Source: Pseudomonadota bacterium (GTDB lineage Bacteria; Desulfobacterota; Desulfobacteria; Desulfobacterales; RPRI01). Taken from it: 64,000 bases of DNA. A program made the translations under genes and the position numbers. Under the pieces are notes generated by a model. The model saw only the letters and a program-made list of their open reading frames with translations. It searched no databases and had not been told where the DNA came from. This document shows, piece by piece, positions 2,103-10,466 of the stretch (position 1 is its first letter; each line of letters begins with the position of its first letter). The stretch is from contig JBDRRF010000076.1 in NCBI GenBank assembly GCA_043825875.1, forward strand, positions 170,120-234,119. The letters are read 5' to 3'.

Positions 2103-2178
2103 TCCCCAGTAGCTCAGCAGGTAGAGCAAGTGGCTGTTAACCACTTTGTCCGCGGTTCGAGTCCGTGCTGGGGAGCCA
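2103..2178 (+). tRNA. tRNA-Asn (GTT)
   Basis: 76 nt; acceptor stem TCCCCAG/CTGGGGA, D arm AGCTCAG..GGTAGAGC, anticodon GTT at 2136-2138, GGTTCGAGTCC T arm, encoded CCA. Confidence 0.97.
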
Positions 2179-2180
2179 AA
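2128..2180 (+). repeat. att core, left copy (within intact tRNA)
   Basis: Identical to 10414-10466 over 53 bp. Confidence 0.95.
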
Positions 2181-3460: not shown

Positions 3461-3814
3461 TTAATCCCCAAATTTAAAAAAACCCAGATCATCATCTGGA
3501 TCATCATCAACGTCATCATCCGGATCATCATCAAAGCCAAATTTGTTTATATTTACAGATAGTTCAGGATAATCATAAACAAAATCTATACACGAATTAT
3601 TTTGTTTTGGCTGTTTCCGGTTTAACAGAAAGCTTTTGCGGCCCCACTCCTGCAAAGCAACTTCAAGATCAATTTTCTTTACATTTTTTATATTAACAAT
3701 AGAGTGGCTTAACTTGCCGGATTTAATCGCGGCGGAGATCCTTTGCCGTGATACTCCTATCAGCCTGGCAAATTGGCTGTTGGTTATAAAGATTCTATCT
3801 TTTTTTCGTGGCAT
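3461..3814 (-). CDS. Nu1/small-terminase-like HTH protein with acidic tail
   Basis: TNSQFARLIGVSRQRISAAIKSGKL...IDLEVALQEW resembles the TerS N-terminal HTH; lies directly downstream of cos-like site B. Confidence 0.6.
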   Translation of the reverse strand: MPRKKDRIFITNSQFARLIGVSRQRISAAIKSGKLSHSIVNIKNVKKIDLEVALQEWGRKSFLLNRKQPKQNNSCIDFVYDYPELSVNINKFGFDDDPDDDVDDDPDDDLGFFKFGD

Positions 3815-3952: not shown

Positions 3953-4699
3953 TTAACTTGCGCTTAAAGTTTCAAGGTATTGGTCATGCAATTCCGGTTG
4001 ATCATGTATAACGGCACGAACAGCCTGTGCCATTGACATGTTATGTTCCGAAGAATACTGATTAACCGCTTCCATAAATGGCTCTGTCGTATGTTCTACC
4101 TTTGCCATAGGTTCACTCTTTGGCGCCTTGGCTTCATCTATCAGGTTGTTAACGTATGATTCATGCAGATCCGGGTTTTCTTCTGACACGGCACGAACAG
4201 CCTGTGCCATTGACAAGTTATGTTCTGAAGCATACTGATTAACAACGTCCATAAAAGATAGTTTGGTTTCTGTCTGGACTGAAGCTTTGCCTTCCTCTTT
4301 TTGTTTGAGACAGATATGATCCGTCCAAAGTTTCGGATATAGCTCTTGACATCTAAGCGTTGCTACGCCCTTTGATTGTTCTTGGTGTTCCCACTGATAC
4401 CTTGAAACAGCCGCCTCAAAAGTCAAAGGGATTCCACCCGGGACACCTTGCTTGCCTGTATCCTTTACTTCTTCAGGCTCAACGGCTGCATCTGTGCTTA
4501 TTAAATGGTTAAAATAACTCTCACCGTTTGGGAATTGTTTCTGAAGCTCTTTATCGCGGAAAAACTCACGATCTGCACTTATTTTTAGCAGTAATTCTGA
4601 CCCTTTAATCTCGCTCGGTTCCCCATTTTCCAGAATATGCCGATAAAAGCTTAATGCTTCCATTGTGTTTTCTGCAGGACTCAAATTATTATCCATCAT
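3953..4699 (-). CDS. Hypothetical protein with repeated ~36-aa helical module (possible scaffold-like protein)
   Basis: FMDVVNQYASEHNLSMAQAVRAVSEENPDLHESY / FMEAVNQYSSEHNMSMAQAVRAVIHDQPELHDQY; DNA repeat at 4011 and 4188. Confidence 0.7.
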   Translation of the reverse strand: MMDNNLSPAENTMEALSFYRHILENGEPSEIKGSELLLKISADREFFRDKELQKQFPNGESYFNHLISTDAAVEPEEVKDTGKQGVPGGIPLTFEAAVSRYQWEHQEQSKGVATLRCQELYPKLWTDHICLKQKEEGKASVQTETKLSFMDVVNQYASEHNLSMAQAVRAVSEENPDLHESYVNNLIDEAKAPKSEPMAKVEHTTEPFMEAVNQYSSEHNMSMAQAVRAVIHDQPELHDQYLETLSAS

Positions 4700-5373: not shown

Positions 5374-5608
5374 GCAAACTGTTTAAAGCTGTATTTGCTA
5401 AACTTATTAAAAAATTAACGTGATTTATTTCTTCTTGGTAATCATGCTTTAGCTTTTCTCTTTTCTTAAATTCTTTATAATCAAGATATCCGCTCGGCAA
5501 TTCAGAAAGCTTTGCTCTGGCATCTGCAATCCGCTTGTTATAATTTTCAAGATCAAGAACTGCTTCTTGTGTTAATTGTTCAGAAGTATAAAAAATAGTA
5601 TTCGACAT
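5366..5608 (-). CDS. Hypothetical protein (~80 aa)
   Basis: ORF MSNTIFY...; helical composition; start uncertain. Confidence 0.5.
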   Translation of the reverse strand: MSNTIFYTSEQLTQEAVLDLENYNKRIADARAKLSELPSGYLDYKEFKKREKLKHDYQEEINHVNFLISLANTALNSLPV

Positions 5609-5717
5609 TTTTACTTTTATCTTTTTTGTTTTTAAAAAAACACACAAGTGTGAATCTGGAAGATTCGCACCCTTCTTAAGACCTTCTTAAAAACATACTT
5701 ATAATACCTTCTTAGGG

Positions 5718-5840
5718 GGGAATTTTTTCCCATGTTTTGGAAAAAATCTCCCATGTTCAGGGAAAATTTTCCCGTCATTACGGGGAATTTTTTCCCATGC
5801 TCTTTTTTGATCTTATTTATTACAGGGAATTTTTTCCCAT
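5718..5840. repeat. Iteron-like array (putative origin of replication)
   Basis: Five 16-bp units of consensus GGGAATTTTTTCCCAT at 5718, 5739, 5760, 5783, 5825 (spacings 21, 21, 23, 42). Confidence 0.8.
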
Positions 5841-5849
5841 AAAAAAGCA

Positions 5850-6566
5850 TCATACCGCCACCCGATCTCTTAACTTTTGGTTTAAATAACCCGGCTTCCA
5901 ATGCTTTTTTGGAATAAGAAAAACCCGCCAAACTCTTTCGCCTTCATAGGTATCATATGGTTCAATTAAAAAGTTCTTTTGAAGGCTTTTTATAGCATCC
6001 CCCACACTTCGCCTGTTGATTCCGGCAAATTCAGCTAACCGCCCAATTTCAGCACTACACAACTCCCAGCGTCGTTTTGCAAAACGCTCTTTGAACTCAA
6101 GGTTATCATATTCAACGTTCTCATCTTCTTCGGCATCATAATATGAGAAATATCTCATTACTGGATAAAGTGCTTTTGCTGTTGGTTTGAGTTCTGACCA
6201 TGTGCCGCTTCTAATAATCCCATTATAAAAGAAGAACGACCGGCCATTTTCACCCTTTTGAGGAAATTTCAATTTATAGTACTTACCCCGTTTTCCGTGC
6301 CGGGTCAGAAAATACTCCCATGTAAACCCAGGAAAACCGTCAAGGTCTTTAATACCTTGCCGTACGGTTTTAATATCTAAGCGCGATAGTGCAGCAATTG
6401 TTTCTTGACCCGGAAATGCTTTACCGTGTTCATCACAATGACAAGCAATTACAGGAAGAACCGCCTTTGCTGCTGTTGATATATTTGACCAGTTCATATT
6501 CTCGTTCCATCTTTTATCGAAACGAAAAAACAGCGTCCAATCAATATCAGCCGAAAAATGATACAT
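5850..6566 (-). CDS. Putative replication initiator with two winged-helix-like repeats
   Basis: AFPGQETIAALSRLDIKTVRQGIKDL and IGRLAEFAGINRRSVGDAIKSL; iterons just downstream; GAGG RBS before ATG 6566. Confidence 0.65.
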   Translation of the reverse strand: MYHFSADIDWTLFFRFDKRWNENMNWSNISTAAKAVLPVIACHCDEHGKAFPGQETIAALSRLDIKTVRQGIKDLDGFPGFTWEYFLTRHGKRGKYYKLKFPQKGENGRSFFFYNGIIRSGTWSELKPTAKALYPVMRYFSYYDAEEDENVEYDNLEFKERFAKRRWELCSAEIGRLAEFAGINRRSVGDAIKSLQKNFLIEPYDTYEGERVWRVFLIPKKHWKPGYLNQKLRDRVAV

Positions 6567-6606
6567 TATTATCGCCCTCACAGCGCAACCGCCCCACAAG
6601 AAGTAA

Positions 6607-6668
6607 TCGGAAGAGAAACGAGGTGTGAGGTTCCTTGCCTATCGGCGCGCGCCGCCTATCTCTTCCGA
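6607..6668 (-). ncRNA. Structured cis-regulatory RNA (TAGGC..GCCGATA family) upstream of rep-like gene
   Basis: Outer stem TCGGAAGAGA/TCTCTTCCGA; core shared with 8285-8340; loop CCTCACA complementary to TGTGAGG RBS at 6576-6582. Confidence 0.65.
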
Positions 6669-6809
6669 AATTCAAAATCTGCAACTGGTTTTTGTTTTGG
6701 TTATTAAATGCGTCAAGTGAACGGTTTGAGCAACCCTGGGACATAGTATCAGGCTGACACATGCCGGAAGCTGAAAACCCGCTTCTTAGAACCTCTGGTG
6801 GCTTCATGC

Positions 6810-7007
6810 TTATGCACTCAACGACTTTTCAGGATCAATCCGGTGTGAGTCTATAAAAGACTCAATATCTTTAAGCCGGTATCTGACAGAACGCCCGATT
6901 TTAATAAATGGAAGTCCACGGCTCATAAAACGATCATTTCGTAAAGTGAATACGCTTTTACCGATAATTTTTGCTGCTTCTTTTTCGTTGATAATTCCTA
7001 AGCTCAT
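6810..7007 (-). CDS. AlpA/excisionase-like HTH protein
   Basis: INEKEAAKIIGKSVFTLRNDRFMSRGLPFIKIGRSVRYRLKDIESFI; AGGAG RBS. Confidence 0.85.
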   Translation of the reverse strand: MSLGIINEKEAAKIIGKSVFTLRNDRFMSRGLPFIKIGRSVRYRLKDIESFIDSHRIDPEKSLSA

Positions 7008-7051
7008 ATTTACTCTCCTTTTTTCAATGTACTTCTTTTAAAAAACAAAAA

Positions 7052-7078
7052 AGCCACAAGATTATTTATCCTGTAGCT
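7052..7078 (-). terminator. Intrinsic terminator upstream of alpA-like gene
   Basis: Minus strand AGCTACAGGAT-AAATA-ATCTTGTGGCT followed by TTTTGTTTTTT. Confidence 0.6.
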
Positions 7079-7204
7079 ATAGAGTACTACTATTTTTTTC
7101 TAAGTCAATTATTTAAAATGATTATAGGAAGTTAGCTGATATTTTAAACTTTAGAATATCAGCTTTTCTTTTGATAAATAAGAGGGTTTTACAGTTATTA
7201 AAGT

Positions 7205-8251
7205 TTAAACCCTTTTCAGGTATAATGGTATATATATTAACCGGAGAGTGTTTTCGCTGAGGTATAAGTTGAACTTTTCAATATGAACGGTATCTCTTGT
7301 TATGCTTTTAAGCAAAAAGGGGTTTCTTTTGATCTTTTGTAAAAAAGCATAAAGATCTATTGCAAAACCGCTATTGCTTTTAATCTTATAAGGTTTACTT
7401 CTCTCTTTTAATTTTATTTCACCTTTATTATTTGTAATTGCTTCATTTGCAAGAAAGTATTCTATAATTTTAAAAAGAATTTGATCTCTGGGATTAATTC
7501 TTATTTCTCGTTCTTTTTCTTTTTGCTTTATTTTTGCAATGCTTTTCTTTTTGCTTTCCAGGTATTTCTTTTCGGCTGCTGGCCGTAATTCATCACTTTC
7601 ACTCATAAACCGATGTATTAAAAATGCGTCCATTTTTGCTCTATTAATTGTTGCTGCTCGTTTTGAGTACGTTCGGGCATCTTCAAGATACTTCATAGAA
7701 GAACTATCTTCTTCAAATCTCATACCTTCCACTAAAAAACTTTTTACAGAGAATATTGCCATTTCAATAGCAAACAGATTAAACAGTGCCTCCGAATCGA
7801 TTTTTTCCCTCGCGCCTGGACTTACTCCATTAGTGCAAAGTGCCTCTCGCCATATTACCTCTTCTGGAATGCCACATTCGCCTTTCATCCCTGAATAGTT
7901 GTTACGATATCTTTTAAAAAGTGCTGCTGAAGCATTTAAACTATCCGTGTAAATAGAATCTGCTCCCCGTTTGTAAATAGCGCGTAAATCTTCAAGAAAT
8001 TTTGCAGGAAAACCGATAAGGCTTTCAATAACCTTTGAGGAAGGCCAAAGAGAATTCCCTAAGCATGGCACGTTATCTTCAAGGTGAAAACAAACAATAA
8101 AATTTGTGCGGCATTCTCTTATAATTAAAAGGCATTCTTGGAAGTATTTACTTTCAATTTCCAAAGATTCCAACCGCTGAATATCTCCAAATATCGGGCA
8201 TCGTTCATTATAAAATTCTGTTTTATAAGGATTGTTTTCAAGTTTATTCAT
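7205..8251 (-). CDS. Hypothetical accessory protein (348 aa)
   Basis: Long ORF; no recognised motif. Confidence 0.7.
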   Translation of the reverse strand: MNKLENNPYKTEFYNERCPIFGDIQRLESLEIESKYFQECLLIIRECRTNFIVCFHLEDNVPCLGNSLWPSSKVIESLIGFPAKFLEDLRAIYKRGADSIYTDSLNASAALFKRYRNNYSGMKGECGIPEEVIWREALCTNGVSPGAREKIDSEALFNLFAIEMAIFSVKSFLVEGMRFEEDSSSMKYLEDARTYSKRAATINRAKMDAFLIHRFMSESDELRPAAEKKYLESKKKSIAKIKQKEKEREIRINPRDQILFKIIEYFLANEAITNNKGEIKLKERSKPYKIKSNSGFAIDLYAFLQKIKRNPFLLKSITRDTVHIEKFNLYLSENTLRLIYIPLYLKRV

Positions 8252-8284
8252 TGCTTGTCCATTTGCAATGCGTCCTGAAATTTA

Positions 8285-8340
8285 TTGAGGGAAGCTGGCA
8301 GGACATTTCCAGCTTATCGGCCCGTCGGCCTATCCCTCAA
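8285..8340 (-). ncRNA. Structured cis-regulatory RNA (TAGGC..GCCGATA family)
   Basis: Minus strand TTGAGGGA-TAGGCCGACGGGCCGATA-AGCTGG-AAATGTCCTG-CCAGCT-TCCCTCAA. Confidence 0.65.
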
Positions 8341-8341
8341 A
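8313..8341 (+). repeat. 29-bp direct repeat, left of TA module
   Basis: CTTATCGGCCCGTCGGCCTATCCCTCAAA, identical at 9020-9048. Confidence 0.9.
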
Positions 8342-8352
8342 AGTATTTGTAA

Positions 8353-8703
8353 TCACATAAGCACCCGGTAATCAATCTTGAGTGCATCGCCAAATAACCG
8401 GGCATTTTTCCGGCCTATAACCCTTTTCCCGTTTTCCATTTCAGAAATGTGACGCTGAGGGATTCCGGTCAATTCGGAAAGTTGCCCTTGCGTCAAACCC
8501 TCTTTATGCCTTGCGCCTGATAGGGCGACACCGGGAGAATTGTCTTTAAATTCAGGAAAGGCATCTCTCCAGGGAATAGTATCCGATGCATCCTTATAGC
8601 CGATAGACTTCATCAACTTGACGGCCTTATCTTTCTCCGACACCGGCCCGGAGAACGTTAATACAATGCTTTTAGTACGGCGCTTTTTCGTGTGTTCCAG
8701 CAT
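8353..8703 (-). CDS. XRE-family HTH antitoxin (HigA-like)
   Basis: GLTQGQLSELTGIPQRHISEMENGKR; overlaps upstream toxin. Confidence 0.85.
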   Translation of the reverse strand: MLEHTKKRRTKSIVLTFSGPVSEKDKAVKLMKSIGYKDASDTIPWRDAFPEFKDNSPGVALSGARHKEGLTQGQLSELTGIPQRHISEMENGKRVIGRKNARLFGDALKIDYRVLM

Positions 8704-8953
8704 AAACAACCTCGATCAATTGTATTTCATTATCAATAATCTGCCAAACCGCAACATAGGTCGGCTGACCCTTTTTTAAATGGCAATGGTGCCTCTGATC
8801 TTTCAGTTTGCCATAATTTGGCCAGTTGCCCCTTATCGGCCCTTTGAGTTCAATCTCTCTCAACAGGGCAAAAAGAGATTTCTTCGCCCTGACAGGCAAC
8901 CGGTCAATCATCTTGTTTATCCGCCTGGGAATTACCACCTGCCATTTAATCAT
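8672..8953 (-). CDS. RelE/HigB-superfamily toxin
   Basis: GPIRGNWPNYGKL, HHCHLKKGQPTYVAVW, EVVYAGTHEKAPY; toxin precedes HTH. Confidence 0.8.
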   Translation of the reverse strand: MIKWQVVIPRRINKMIDRLPVRAKKSLFALLREIELKGPIRGNWPNYGKLKDQRHHCHLKKGQPTYVAVWQIIDNEIQLIEVVYAGTHEKAPY

Positions 8954-9019
8954 GATAATAATATACCTTTTTTTAGTATCAAATCAAGATTTATTTTTTA
9001 TCGTTTACATTTGCCGCTT

Positions 9020-9048
9020 CTTATCGGCCCGTCGGCCTATCCCTCAAA
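9020..9048 (+). repeat. 29-bp direct repeat, right of TA module (overlaps integrase stop)
   Basis: Identical to 8313-8341. Confidence 0.9.
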
Positions 9049-10213
9049 CTTCGTTTGCTGCTTTAACCTTTGATGTTTTGTTCGCTGGCTTGTTTATTAT
9101 ATCCCCTGCAAGCGCTGAGGCTCTTTTCAATGCGTCATCTCGCAAGTGTGCATACCTTTGAGTCATTAGCGGGCTCTTATGAGTCAGAAGCCTTTGCAAG
9201 GTGTATAAGTCAACTTGCCCAGAGCTTGCCAACACAGACGCATAAACATGACGGAGCCCATGCATCGGCCTAAATCCAACAGGAAGTCCAGCCTTGTTTC
9301 GGATACGGTCAACGCTTTTTCTATTCAAAGTAGTTAAATGAGATCCTTCCCTTTGCCCTGGGAAAATCCATCCATTACTTCCTGCTTTTTCTATTTTTTC
9401 TAATACAGCTAACGCAGAGCCGTTTAAAGGGATACTCTGATCTTGCCCGCCCTTTGGGTTACGGATTGTAATAAAACCCCGCTCAAAGTCAATGTCCTGC
9501 CATTTTAACCGGAATATTTCGCCCCGTCTCATGCCTGTATAAAGTGCAAGTTTCATAATACTTGCCGTTGTCTGATCTTCATCTCTCTCTAAAACAGCCA
9601 GTAAAGATTTAATCTGATATTCTGTTAGATCTTCTGTTGTTTGGTTGTTCAATCTTGGGATTTCAATTTTAAAAGTAATAGGAGAAGTCTTGCCCTTTTT
9701 CACGCCATAATTGAGAGTCCGGCGAAGGATTTCAAGCACCCTTGCTGCTGTTGTCTTATGTCCCTTTTTTAATAACCCCAAACGGAGCCGATCAACATCA
9801 AGCGGAAGAAGTTGACCCGGTTCTTTATCGCCAAGCACCTGCCTTATGTGAACATCGAATTTTCTTTTCTCCGCATTTATAATTTTATTGTATGGATTAT
9901 TTTCACAGTATGAATCCCAAAGTTTCGCAATAGTCCATCGGGTATTTACAGCTTCCTTCCTTGCCTTTTCAACTTCTCTTTTTTCTGTATTTGAAGTTTG
10001 ATTCCCTTCAATTTTTTGTGCCCGGATACGCGCTGCCTTTGCAGGAGTCATATCATCTTGGAATTGACGCCCCACTTTTTCATCAATTGCTTTCCCTGCT
10101 TTCCGATAACGGATATAATAAATCCTTTCCGGCCGGCCTGTAACTATTCCCTTGCTTTCAATATAATATACTCCAGGATATTTTGTCTTGATTCGTAAAA
10201 ATGATTTTGGCAT
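9044..10213 (-). CDS. int: Tyrosine recombinase/integrase
   Basis: LALYTGMRRGEI, HGLRH, LLTHKSPLMTQRYAH; AGAGG RBS before ATG 10213. Confidence 0.95.
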   Translation of the reverse strand: MPKSFLRIKTKYPGVYYIESKGIVTGRPERIYYIRYRKAGKAIDEKVGRQFQDDMTPAKAARIRAQKIEGNQTSNTEKREVEKARKEAVNTRWTIAKLWDSYCENNPYNKIINAEKRKFDVHIRQVLGDKEPGQLLPLDVDRLRLGLLKKGHKTTAARVLEILRRTLNYGVKKGKTSPITFKIEIPRLNNQTTEDLTEYQIKSLLAVLERDEDQTTASIMKLALYTGMRRGEIFRLKWQDIDFERGFITIRNPKGGQDQSIPLNGSALAVLEKIEKAGSNGWIFPGQREGSHLTTLNRKSVDRIRNKAGLPVGFRPMHGLRHVYASVLASSGQVDLYTLQRLLTHKSPLMTQRYAHLRDDALKRASALAGDIINKPANKTSKVKAANEV

Positions 10214-10227
10214 TTTAAACCTCTTTT

Positions 10228-10290
10228 TGTTCCCCACACTACACAATAATTATAACCACTGCTTTTTATTCCCCACACTATTCCCCACAC
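10228..10290 (+). repeat. Putative integrase arm-type sites (3x TTCCCCACAC)
   Basis: Copies at 10228-10239, 10266-10278, 10279-10290. Confidence 0.7.
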
Positions 10291-10413: not shown

Positions 10414-10466
10414 AAGTGGCTGTTAACCACTTTGTCCGCGGTTCGAGTCCGTGCTGGGGAGCCAAA
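10414..10466 (+). repeat. att core, right copy (3' part of tRNA-Asn)
   Basis: Identical to 2128-2180. Confidence 0.95.

Follow-up and report, generated by a model that had tools for sequence, protein, structure and literature searches.

Two putative int-alpA-type leaders, each with a loop matched to two sites before its own gene, in an integrative element of a Desulfobacterales bacterium

Segments of mRNA that pair in cis with a downstream Shine-Dalgarno (SD) sequence are known from the fold-back inhibition of IS10 and IS50, from RNA thermometers, and from riboswitches that sequester the SD in a pseudoknot, and the P4 CI RNA is grouped with C4 among the immunity RNAs of mobile elements. The int-alpA RNA motif, which we take to originate in the survey of Weinberg et al. 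(2017), presumably owes its name to a position between an integrase gene on its 5' side and alpA on its 3' side. Here we compare with these systems two RNA motifs, RNA1 and RNA2, on the minus strand of a 64,000-nucleotide stretch of DNA (the window; contig JBDRRF010000076.1, positions 170,120 to 234,119) from a Pseudomonadota bacterium assigned to the Desulfobacterales. RNA1 precedes an open reading frame (ORF) of 348 amino acids (aa) and RNA2 precedes a replication-initiator-like (rep-like) gene, both within one small island. In each, three helices (P1, P2, and P3) form a junction, and the loop of P3, termed L3, is complementary to a proximal site (S1) and to a distal site at the SD (S2), around which a further hairpin (P4) can form.

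The main text of the 2017 survey (PMC5737381) does not mention the motif, its supplement being outside what was checked, and in the literature searched int-alpA occurs only as a list entry and a gene-order label, with no function found for it and no occurrence of its Rfam accession, RF02996. A cis leader with a second SD site, P4, and diverse downstream genes was not found in the texts searched, the survey supplement excepted, nor did the searched literature bring together an anti-SD, a three-way junction, an integrase, and a leader. The part of PMC5320573 that treats C4 of P1/P7 describes a small RNA of several hairpins, encoded immediately before its target on a mobile element, with duplicated target sites and a loop that gives specificity and covers the ribosome-binding site. 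An earlier note on this DNA, made without database searches, had read the two motifs as an RNA switch family of modular, programmable translational repressors. The family is a known one; rather than a new system, the present data add a member to it and suggest how it may work. We hypothesize, at a probability of roughly 0.6, that both motifs are int-alpA-type, cis-acting anti-SD leaders with an internal decoy that set or gate the translation of the gene downstream; on the sequence evidence, the leader RNA most likely sets how much protein is made.

Family membership and structure of the two leaders

RNA1 (8340-8273) fits the int-alpA model over its full length, with 39.3 bits against a gathering score of 35.8 and coverage of model positions 1-71, and it is the only RF02996 match above the cut-off in the whole genome. 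The earlier note, whose coordinates and minus-strand sequences for both motifs are all correct, had itself named a full Rfam match as removing novelty, and by that measure the family is not new. In RNA1, P1 (UUGAGGGA, 8340-8333, with UCCCUCAA, 8292-8285) gives way to a UA junction; P2 (8330-8319) reads GGCC-GACG-GGCC and is joined by J23 (GAUAA, 8318-8314) to P3 (8313-8294), a GCUGG/CCAGC stem with AAAUGUCCUG (8308-8299) as L3. The junction is followed by a 7-nucleotide (nt) linker, by S1, at which the Rfam model reaches its 3' end, and by P4, whose loop carries S2 (GGACA, 8260-8256; L3:S2 duplex -7.4 kcal/mol) and whose 3' strand contains the ATG (8251-8249) of the 348-aa ORF. Minimum free energy (MFE) folding recovers the three-way junction (z -2.97), and two non-overlapping sites as good as those observed in the RNA1 tail arose in 91 of 20,000 composition-preserving shuffles.

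Matches to RF02996 were collected from relatives (21 of 101 genomes at E<=0.1) and from a sample of the phylum (24 of 151 genomes at E<=0.01), giving 50 overall. Nine of them, with a hand-given structure, made up model R1; 40 matches were re-aligned to R1 and rebuilt as model R2, from which RNA2 was left out. Two MAFFT alignments (A1 and A2) were too shifted for RNAalifold and recovered P1 only. In the 40-member alignment, 86.4% of cells are paired vs 61.6% in shuffles, 14 of the 16 pairs vary on both sides, and the observed score was reached by none of 500 shuffles; the junction nucleotides are highly conserved across the family.

RNA2 shares with RNA1 the core GAUAGGC-N6/7-GCCGAUA-R-GC. Its P1 spans 10 base pairs (bp; UCGGAAGAGA, 6668-6659, with UCUCUUCCGA, 6616-6607) and is followed by UA; P2 (6656-6644, GGCG-GCGCG-CGCC) is identical to the P2 hairpin of a bona fide family member (L009), J23 is GAUAG (6643-6639), and the weak P3 (6638-6618) bears AACCUCACA (6632-6624) as L3. 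S2 sits 9 nt before the rep-like ATG (6566-6564), and a pair of sites as good as the observed one arose in 33 of 20,000 shuffles of the RNA2 tail, so that for both motifs the earlier observation that each loop matches its own downstream sites is borne out. RNA2 on its own (6668-6593) lies below RF02996 detection, with no Rfam family at E<=10, and a permissive Rfam scan of 5500-9500 returned int-alpA at RNA1 only, with no C4-type match at E<=10. The Rfam comparison that the earlier note had proposed thus came out divided, with an int-alpA match above the gathering score for RNA1 and nothing for RNA2 or for C4. R1 with default filters also misses RNA2 at E<=10. Run on the window with filters off, R2 finds RNA2 as its second-best match at 20.9 bits (rough E 0.001), the next in 64 kb reaching 10.5 bits, and places it on all three helices with two non-standard pairs. 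Because R2 recognizes RNA2 without having been trained on it, and because int-alpA leaders stand before orthologous genes (see below), we class RNA2 from its sequence as a divergent int-alpA leader; the two motifs are related, as the earlier note had proposed. An extra R2 match in the same genome (G000:C26, 18.3 bits, E 0.39), in which P2 and P3 were missing by eye, was taken as chance.

Covariation of the loop with its two sites

From the 50 matches we dropped four that parsed badly (L017, L020, L022, and L047), one identical copy (L024), and two with a weak P1 or P3 (L018 and L021), leaving 43 members; in 38 of these an ORF of 45 codons or more begins 24-50 nt downstream of P1 and has a GG in its -16 to -3 window. 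Clustering at 80% identity reduced these 38 to a non-redundant set of 34. Across the 34 clusters, the mean contiguous complementarity of a member's L3 to its own S1 window, 6-11 nt after P1, is 5.71 vs 4.15 for the windows of others, and that to its own S2 window, at the SD, is 5.51 vs 4.43; for each window the observed mean was reached in none of 20,000 permutations, and duplex energies agree. In the same sequences, pairing of the P2 loop with the tail gave no such signal (16,898 of 20,000 permutations), nor did pairing of L3 with the upstream 40 nt (15,860 of 20,000). This family-wide permutation makes the case for loop-site matching much stronger than the per-leader shuffles do. Loop parts unlike an anti-SD covary as well: CCACUG occurs with CAGUGG and GUGG, CUCCAUC with GAUGGAG twice, and CUGCUG with CAGCAG and AGCAG. 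Own duplexes contain 10 G-U and 2 A-C positions vs 50 and 48 in non-own pairings, a bias that, small as the numbers are, runs in the direction expected for RNA pairing on the transcribed strand. Mean duplex energies are -9.2 kcal/mol for S1 and -9.0 for S2, with S1 the stronger partner in 18 members, S2 in 13, and three ties. The earlier note had looked to homologues without loop-target complementarity as the case that would count against it; in the homologues complementarity is kept, the loop varying in concert with both sites.

A stem of 4 bp or more surrounds S2 in 30 of the 34 members, vs 46% with shuffled flanks, and one of 5 bp or more does so in 21 of the 34, vs 21%. The stem sequences of P4 vary widely (e.g. 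GCCAUU/AAUGGC, CAAGC/GCUUG, GAAAG/CUUUC, and CCACC/GGUGG). The Rfam model stops at S1, so that S2 and P4 lie beyond it, and the end of S2 is 1-16 nt from the start codon. In 16 of the 34, an ORF on the same strand stops 4-22 nt short of P1, making these leaders intercistronic; in RNA1 the stop codon of the gene upstream is 12 nt from P1. The 27 upstream ORFs scanned comprise seven integrases, four HTH_3/HTH_37 proteins, two ParE, one resolvase, one DUF932, three host-type genes, and nine without a family; HTH_3 or ParE genes stand directly upstream of the leader in six of these 27 relatives. Eight of the 38 downstream ORFs encode integrases (seven with PF00589 and one cut copy with N-terminal integrase domains only), one has a weak DUF7562 match, 29 have no family at E<=0.001, and none of the 38 has HTH_17. 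RNA1 itself has an integrase on one side and an HTH_17 gene on the other, though it is separated from them by a toxin-antitoxin-like cassette and the 348-aa ORF. The downstream proteins, the rep-like one included, fall into 28 BLASTP clusters among 39, and this variety of unrelated genes fits the modular, programmable element that had been proposed. No terminator-like site was seen after either junction in RNA1 or RNA2. As far as sequence can tell, the layout is that of a portable cis leader, not of a free-standing small RNA (sRNA) gene.

The P4 hairpin of RNA1 also holds a four-codon mini-ORF (ATG GAC AAG CAA TGA, 8262-8248), the stop of which overlaps the main start as ATGA. S1 lies 8 nt upstream of it, and the family generally has no such mini-ORF. 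S1 as the SD of a leader peptide was rejected as a general feature, a start codon following S1 by 3-12 nt in just 9 of the 34 members.

Relatives of the rep-like protein were found in 7 of 400 other genomes of the order and at 74 metagenome loci, and a scan of genome contigs for the protein gave 95 pattern matches and no relative. Seven of the 74 loci, in which the match started at the locus edge, were left out, and 67 had upstream sequence. In nine of the 67, an R2 match (24.5-56.4 bits) ends just before the rep-like gene. An Rfam rescan of eight such leaders gave 38.1 bits for L066, which passes the gathering score, 34.1 for L081, and 26-27 for four others; the leader of L057 scores 27.5 bits on the Rfam model. 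The locus with the closest protein relative (L064, 64% identity) has the P1 of RNA2, but with ACCCACA as its loop and GUGGGG and GUGGGAG as its sites. L057 and L065 have the loop CCCGUC with GACGGG-type sites, and L081, L083-85, and L109 have UCCUGG with CCAGG and CAGGA. Among orthologues, the loop of RNA2 thus varies in step with its sites. The per-locus shuffle test reached p<=0.05 at none of eight R2-match loci, a test too weak for pairings of 5-6 nt.

A second type of leader precedes the same gene family. The 51 loci with a protein match from residue 1 yielded 39 usable non-redundant ones, of which 31 have no R2 match, and in 10 of these 31 the SD region finds a complement of 8-10 nt in a loop at -42 to -50 (p<=0.05 per locus). 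These pairings consist of 8-10 Watson-Crick pairs, half of them with one G-U, and their sequence differs by locus. Of 11 second-type leaders folded, 10 gave a three-way junction in which J23 is A-rich and S1 is absent, and none of the 11 matched an Rfam family. The second type has no UAG junction; the loop complementary to the SD is that of P3, and its P2 loop is often GGGAA-like and could pair with the P3 loop. Since an S1-less leader before the same genes keeps loop:SD complementarity, the comparison points to loop:SD pairing as the conserved core of these leaders.

A candidate two-site mechanism and its alternatives

We hypothesize that L3 pairs either with S1, as a pseudoknot, or with S2, which overlaps the SD and would be presented in the P4 loop just before the start codon. 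Pairing of L3 with S2 would mask the ribosome-binding site and turn translation off, while L3:S1 pairing would act as an internal decoy that competes with L3:S2 and leaves the ribosome-binding site free. The balance between S1 and S2 may thereby set or gate downstream translation independently of the transcription of upstream genes. Because L3, S1, and S2 change together, each leader would be addressed to its own gene, RNA1 to the 348-aa ORF and RNA2 to the rep-like gene.

Several points weigh against this proposal. The S2 duplex of RNA1 is short (5 bp, -7.4 kcal/mol) and weaker than that of S1 (about -10), so the default state of RNA1 could be ON. L3 is often CCU-rich and both sites are SD-like, which makes their complementarity partly generic, a bias that the permutation test removes, although relatedness among the sequences inflates its result. 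The L3 pairings were compared by duplex energy only, as the folding tools used cannot score pseudoknots, and because the 40-member alignment (A4) had been made on the model structure, its pair counts are biased towards that structure. P3 and P4 of RNA2 are weak; the MFE of its 116 nt is no better than that of shuffles (z 0.51), and P1 alone is robust in its centroid structure. Rfam types int-alpA as Gene; sRNA, not as cis-regulatory. What the sequences show is family membership, the structure, the covariation of the loop with its two sites, and the cis position; repression, two-state behaviour, and the trigger are purely what we infer from them.

The Rfam type would suit another reading, the main rival though one we consider unlikely, in which the junctions are processed, trans-acting antisense RNAs like the C4 of P1/P7 or the P4 CI immunity RNAs. 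A junction cut from an operon transcript, e.g. by RNase P at the P1 stem, would accumulate, bind S1 and S2 on nascent transcripts of its own or an incoming element, block their translation, and so provide element-specific immunity. The duplicated target sites and the two specificities in one island suit immunity RNAs, and the topology is C4-like as C4 is presented in the cited part of PMC5320573, with a closing stem, internal hairpins, loop specificity, and processing from a longer transcript. The leaders also lie within operons, 16 of 34 of them right behind the stop codon of an upstream gene, and would have to be processed to yield a free RNA. Yet the fixed short distance to the start codon and the lack of a terminator fit a cis element better. 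The C4 match is absent at E<=10, and there is a single pairing loop, the P2 loop giving no signal and an upstream copy of the target not being found; on these grounds the analogy with C4 that the earlier note had drawn fails as to membership.

We find it quite improbable that the L3:S1 pseudoknot alone is selected, as a compact fold that helps to stabilize or process the mRNA or to bind a protein, and that S2 has no translational role and owes its likeness incidentally to both sites being SD-like or to a local duplication. The Rfam model does end exactly at S1 with S2 outside, the S1 duplex outweighs that of S2 in 18 of the 34 members, RNA1 among them, and the conserved junction nucleotides would agree with such a fold; the S2 window, however, covaries with L3 itself (0 of 20,000), also where it is as unlike an SD as AGCAG, GUGG, GAUGG, and GGACA, S2 is kept in a conserved hairpin loop, and the S1-less variant leaders retain long loop:SD complementarity. 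A purely DNA-level role, with L3, S1, and S2 as one inverted and two direct repeats bound by the element's repressor or AlpA or serving as an integrase arm site, we regard as very improbable. Several HTH proteins are encoded by the element and short repeats near promoters are a common operator layout, but the repeats lie in RNA helices and loops with covarying stems, the transcribed strand tolerates G-U over A-C (10 vs 2), and the motifs are not the same from one element to another, where the proteins encoded nearby are unrelated.

A wider generalization may be ventured, tentatively and with the odds somewhat against it. The int-alpA RNAs and the Rfam-unmatched three-way-junction leaders before the rep-like genes might form one widespread class of portable, re-addressable translational gates, with which integrative elements, satellites, and phages would silence the integrase, replication, and further early genes carried on read-through transcripts. 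The decoy might then make each gate a true two-state switch, set off for example when translation from upstream arrives at P1 or by a factor of the helper or host; or the junction, once excised, might also act in trans as an element-specific immunity RNA. The comparative data give int-alpA a concrete, testable mechanism, in which a single loop fits both a decoy and the ribosome-binding site and is re-addressed per gene. If true, this would explain how small mobile elements make the translation of integrase, replication, and further genes independent of read-through transcription, and would offer a compact, programmable part for translational control. The window contributes two differently addressed copies in one 8.3-kb element and a truncated third copy that would mark a cassette insertion, and the same gene family appears to use a second, uncatalogued leader built on the same principle.

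The integrative element and comparison with described systems

The 8.3-kb island is bounded by a 53-nt perfect direct repeat (2128-2180 and 10414-10466), and we interpret it from its sequence as an integrative element inserted at tRNA-Asn (Table 1). On the minus strand it carries, in order, an integrase, a 93-aa ORF with an HTH_3 protein (toxin-antitoxin-like), RNA1, the 348-aa ORF, an AlpA-like HTH_17 gene, RNA2, the rep-like gene, several ORFs of no assigned function, and a Cox- or small-terminase-like ORF (3461-3814). The 348-aa ORF is without a match in Pfam, PHROGs, NCBIfam, and PADLOC. The gene set (integrase, AlpA-like, rep-like, and small-terminase/Cox-like) is satellite-like or like that of phage-inducible chromosomal islands (PICIs). 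Classical PICIs are called int-alpA-pri elements in a table legend of PMC13612085, and the predicted gene order of the island resembles the order so named there.

Table 1. Coordinates and supporting evidence for the leaders, their sites, and the main genes of the element, with the loci of the second leader type
Feature	Position	Strand	Evidence or members
RNA1 three-way junction	8285..8340	-	Rfam RF02996 39.3 bits; model R2 43.1 bits; MFE fold
RNA1 site S1 CAGGACG, proximal L3 partner	8271..8277	-	6 Watson-Crick pairs and one G-U; duplex about -10 kcal/mol
RNA1 hairpin P4 CAUUGC/GCAAUG, 6-bp enclosing stem	8249..8270	-	MFE fold
RNA2 three-way junction	6607..6668	-	R2 20.9 bits, E about 0.001 (RNA2 outside training set)
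RNA2 site S1 UGUGGGG	6592..6598	-	7 pairs with L3, one G-U; duplex -10.5 kcal/mol
RNA2 site S2 UGUGAGG (6582-6576; SD region) with weak 3-bp flanking stem CGC/GCG	6573..6585	-	duplex -11.9 kcal/mol
att repeat within tRNA-Asn (3' part)	2128-2180	+	identical partner 10414-10466; tRNA-Asn match
Tyrosine integrase	9044..10246	-	PF00589 4.7e-30
Truncated third leader copy, 29 nt	9020..9048	-	perfect direct repeat of RNA1 5' half (P1 5' strand, P2, J23); partner 8313-8341
348-aa ORF, downstream of RNA1	7205..8251	-	family not found
AlpA/excisionase-like HTH_17 gene, upstream of RNA2	6810..7007	-	PF12728 2.4e-6; phrog_66
Replication-initiator-like gene (HTH_36), downstream of RNA2	5850..6566	-	PF13730 1.2e-13; phrog_1032 replication initiation protein
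Second-type leader loci	about 105 nt before rep-like gene		L069, L072, L079, L080, L090, L091, L094, L102, L116, L124, L132, L070
Further second-type loci			L054, L056, L053

The truncated copy overlaps the integrase stop codon, and between it and the full RNA1 lies the 93-aa/HTH_3 cassette with its own promoter-like site (8982-8955). This arrangement, with a 29-nt RNA1 copy at the integrase stop and the cassette between the copies, suggests that an ancestral integrase-leader junction took up the cassette by insertion or was the site of a recombination with it. Within the 93-aa ORF, a 23-nt stretch (8820-8842) is 78% identical to P2-J23-P3 of RNA1 (GGGCCGAUAAG...), either a remnant or chance. 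Just downstream of the rep-like gene (5712-5840) are three copies of a 22-nt repeat (consensus ATTACGGGGAATTTTTTCCCAT) with an inverted repeat in each; they are iteron-like and may mark a replication origin. Repeats of the TTATTCCCCACA type lie beside both att copies (2219-2245, 10212-10238, and 10263-10289) and are possibly arm-type binding sites of the integrase. In the gap between the 348-aa ORF and the alpA-like gene (7052-7164), a promoter-like site (7148-7121) accompanies a long inverted repeat (7134-7164), and a hairpin resembling a terminator, with a U run, lies at 7078-7052; the gap is probably the boundary of two transcription units. A 248-aa ORF (3953-4699) contains two copies of a 105-nt repeat (81% identical, 3974-4255), implying an internally repeated protein. 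An 86-aa ORF (6547-6807) overlapping RNA2 was taken as non-coding, since it has no Pfam family and 400 further genomes of the order yielded no homologue.

Among described systems, int-alpA resembles RNA1 in its P1/P2/P3 junction, UAG and GA(A/U)AAG junction bases, CCU-type P3 loop, and G-rich 3' tail; RNA1 lies between an integrase and an AlpA-like gene, though other genes intervene. RNA2 differs in falling below the Rfam threshold and in following the alpA-like gene and preceding a replication-like one. C4, as far as the cited part of PMC5320573 describes it, is likewise a multi-hairpin RNA upstream of its target gene with loop specificity and duplicated sites. C4 has two pairing loops (a' and b') and targets on both sides, whereas here there is one loop with both targets downstream. 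C4 is processed by RNase P to a free RNA of about 77 nt, as the junctions here would be on the trans-acting reading. Hints of a riboswitch are the two alternative partners of L3 and the conserved junction bases, while the unrelated downstream genes give no clue to a ligand. With the cis anti-SD systems, the leaders share an upstream mRNA segment that would pair with the SD and uncouple translation from transcription, an uncoupling that suits genes of mobile elements exposed to read-through transcription. The difference is that here the putative anti-SD is carried on a conserved three-way junction, is accompanied by a decoy copy of its target, and is re-addressed gene by gene.

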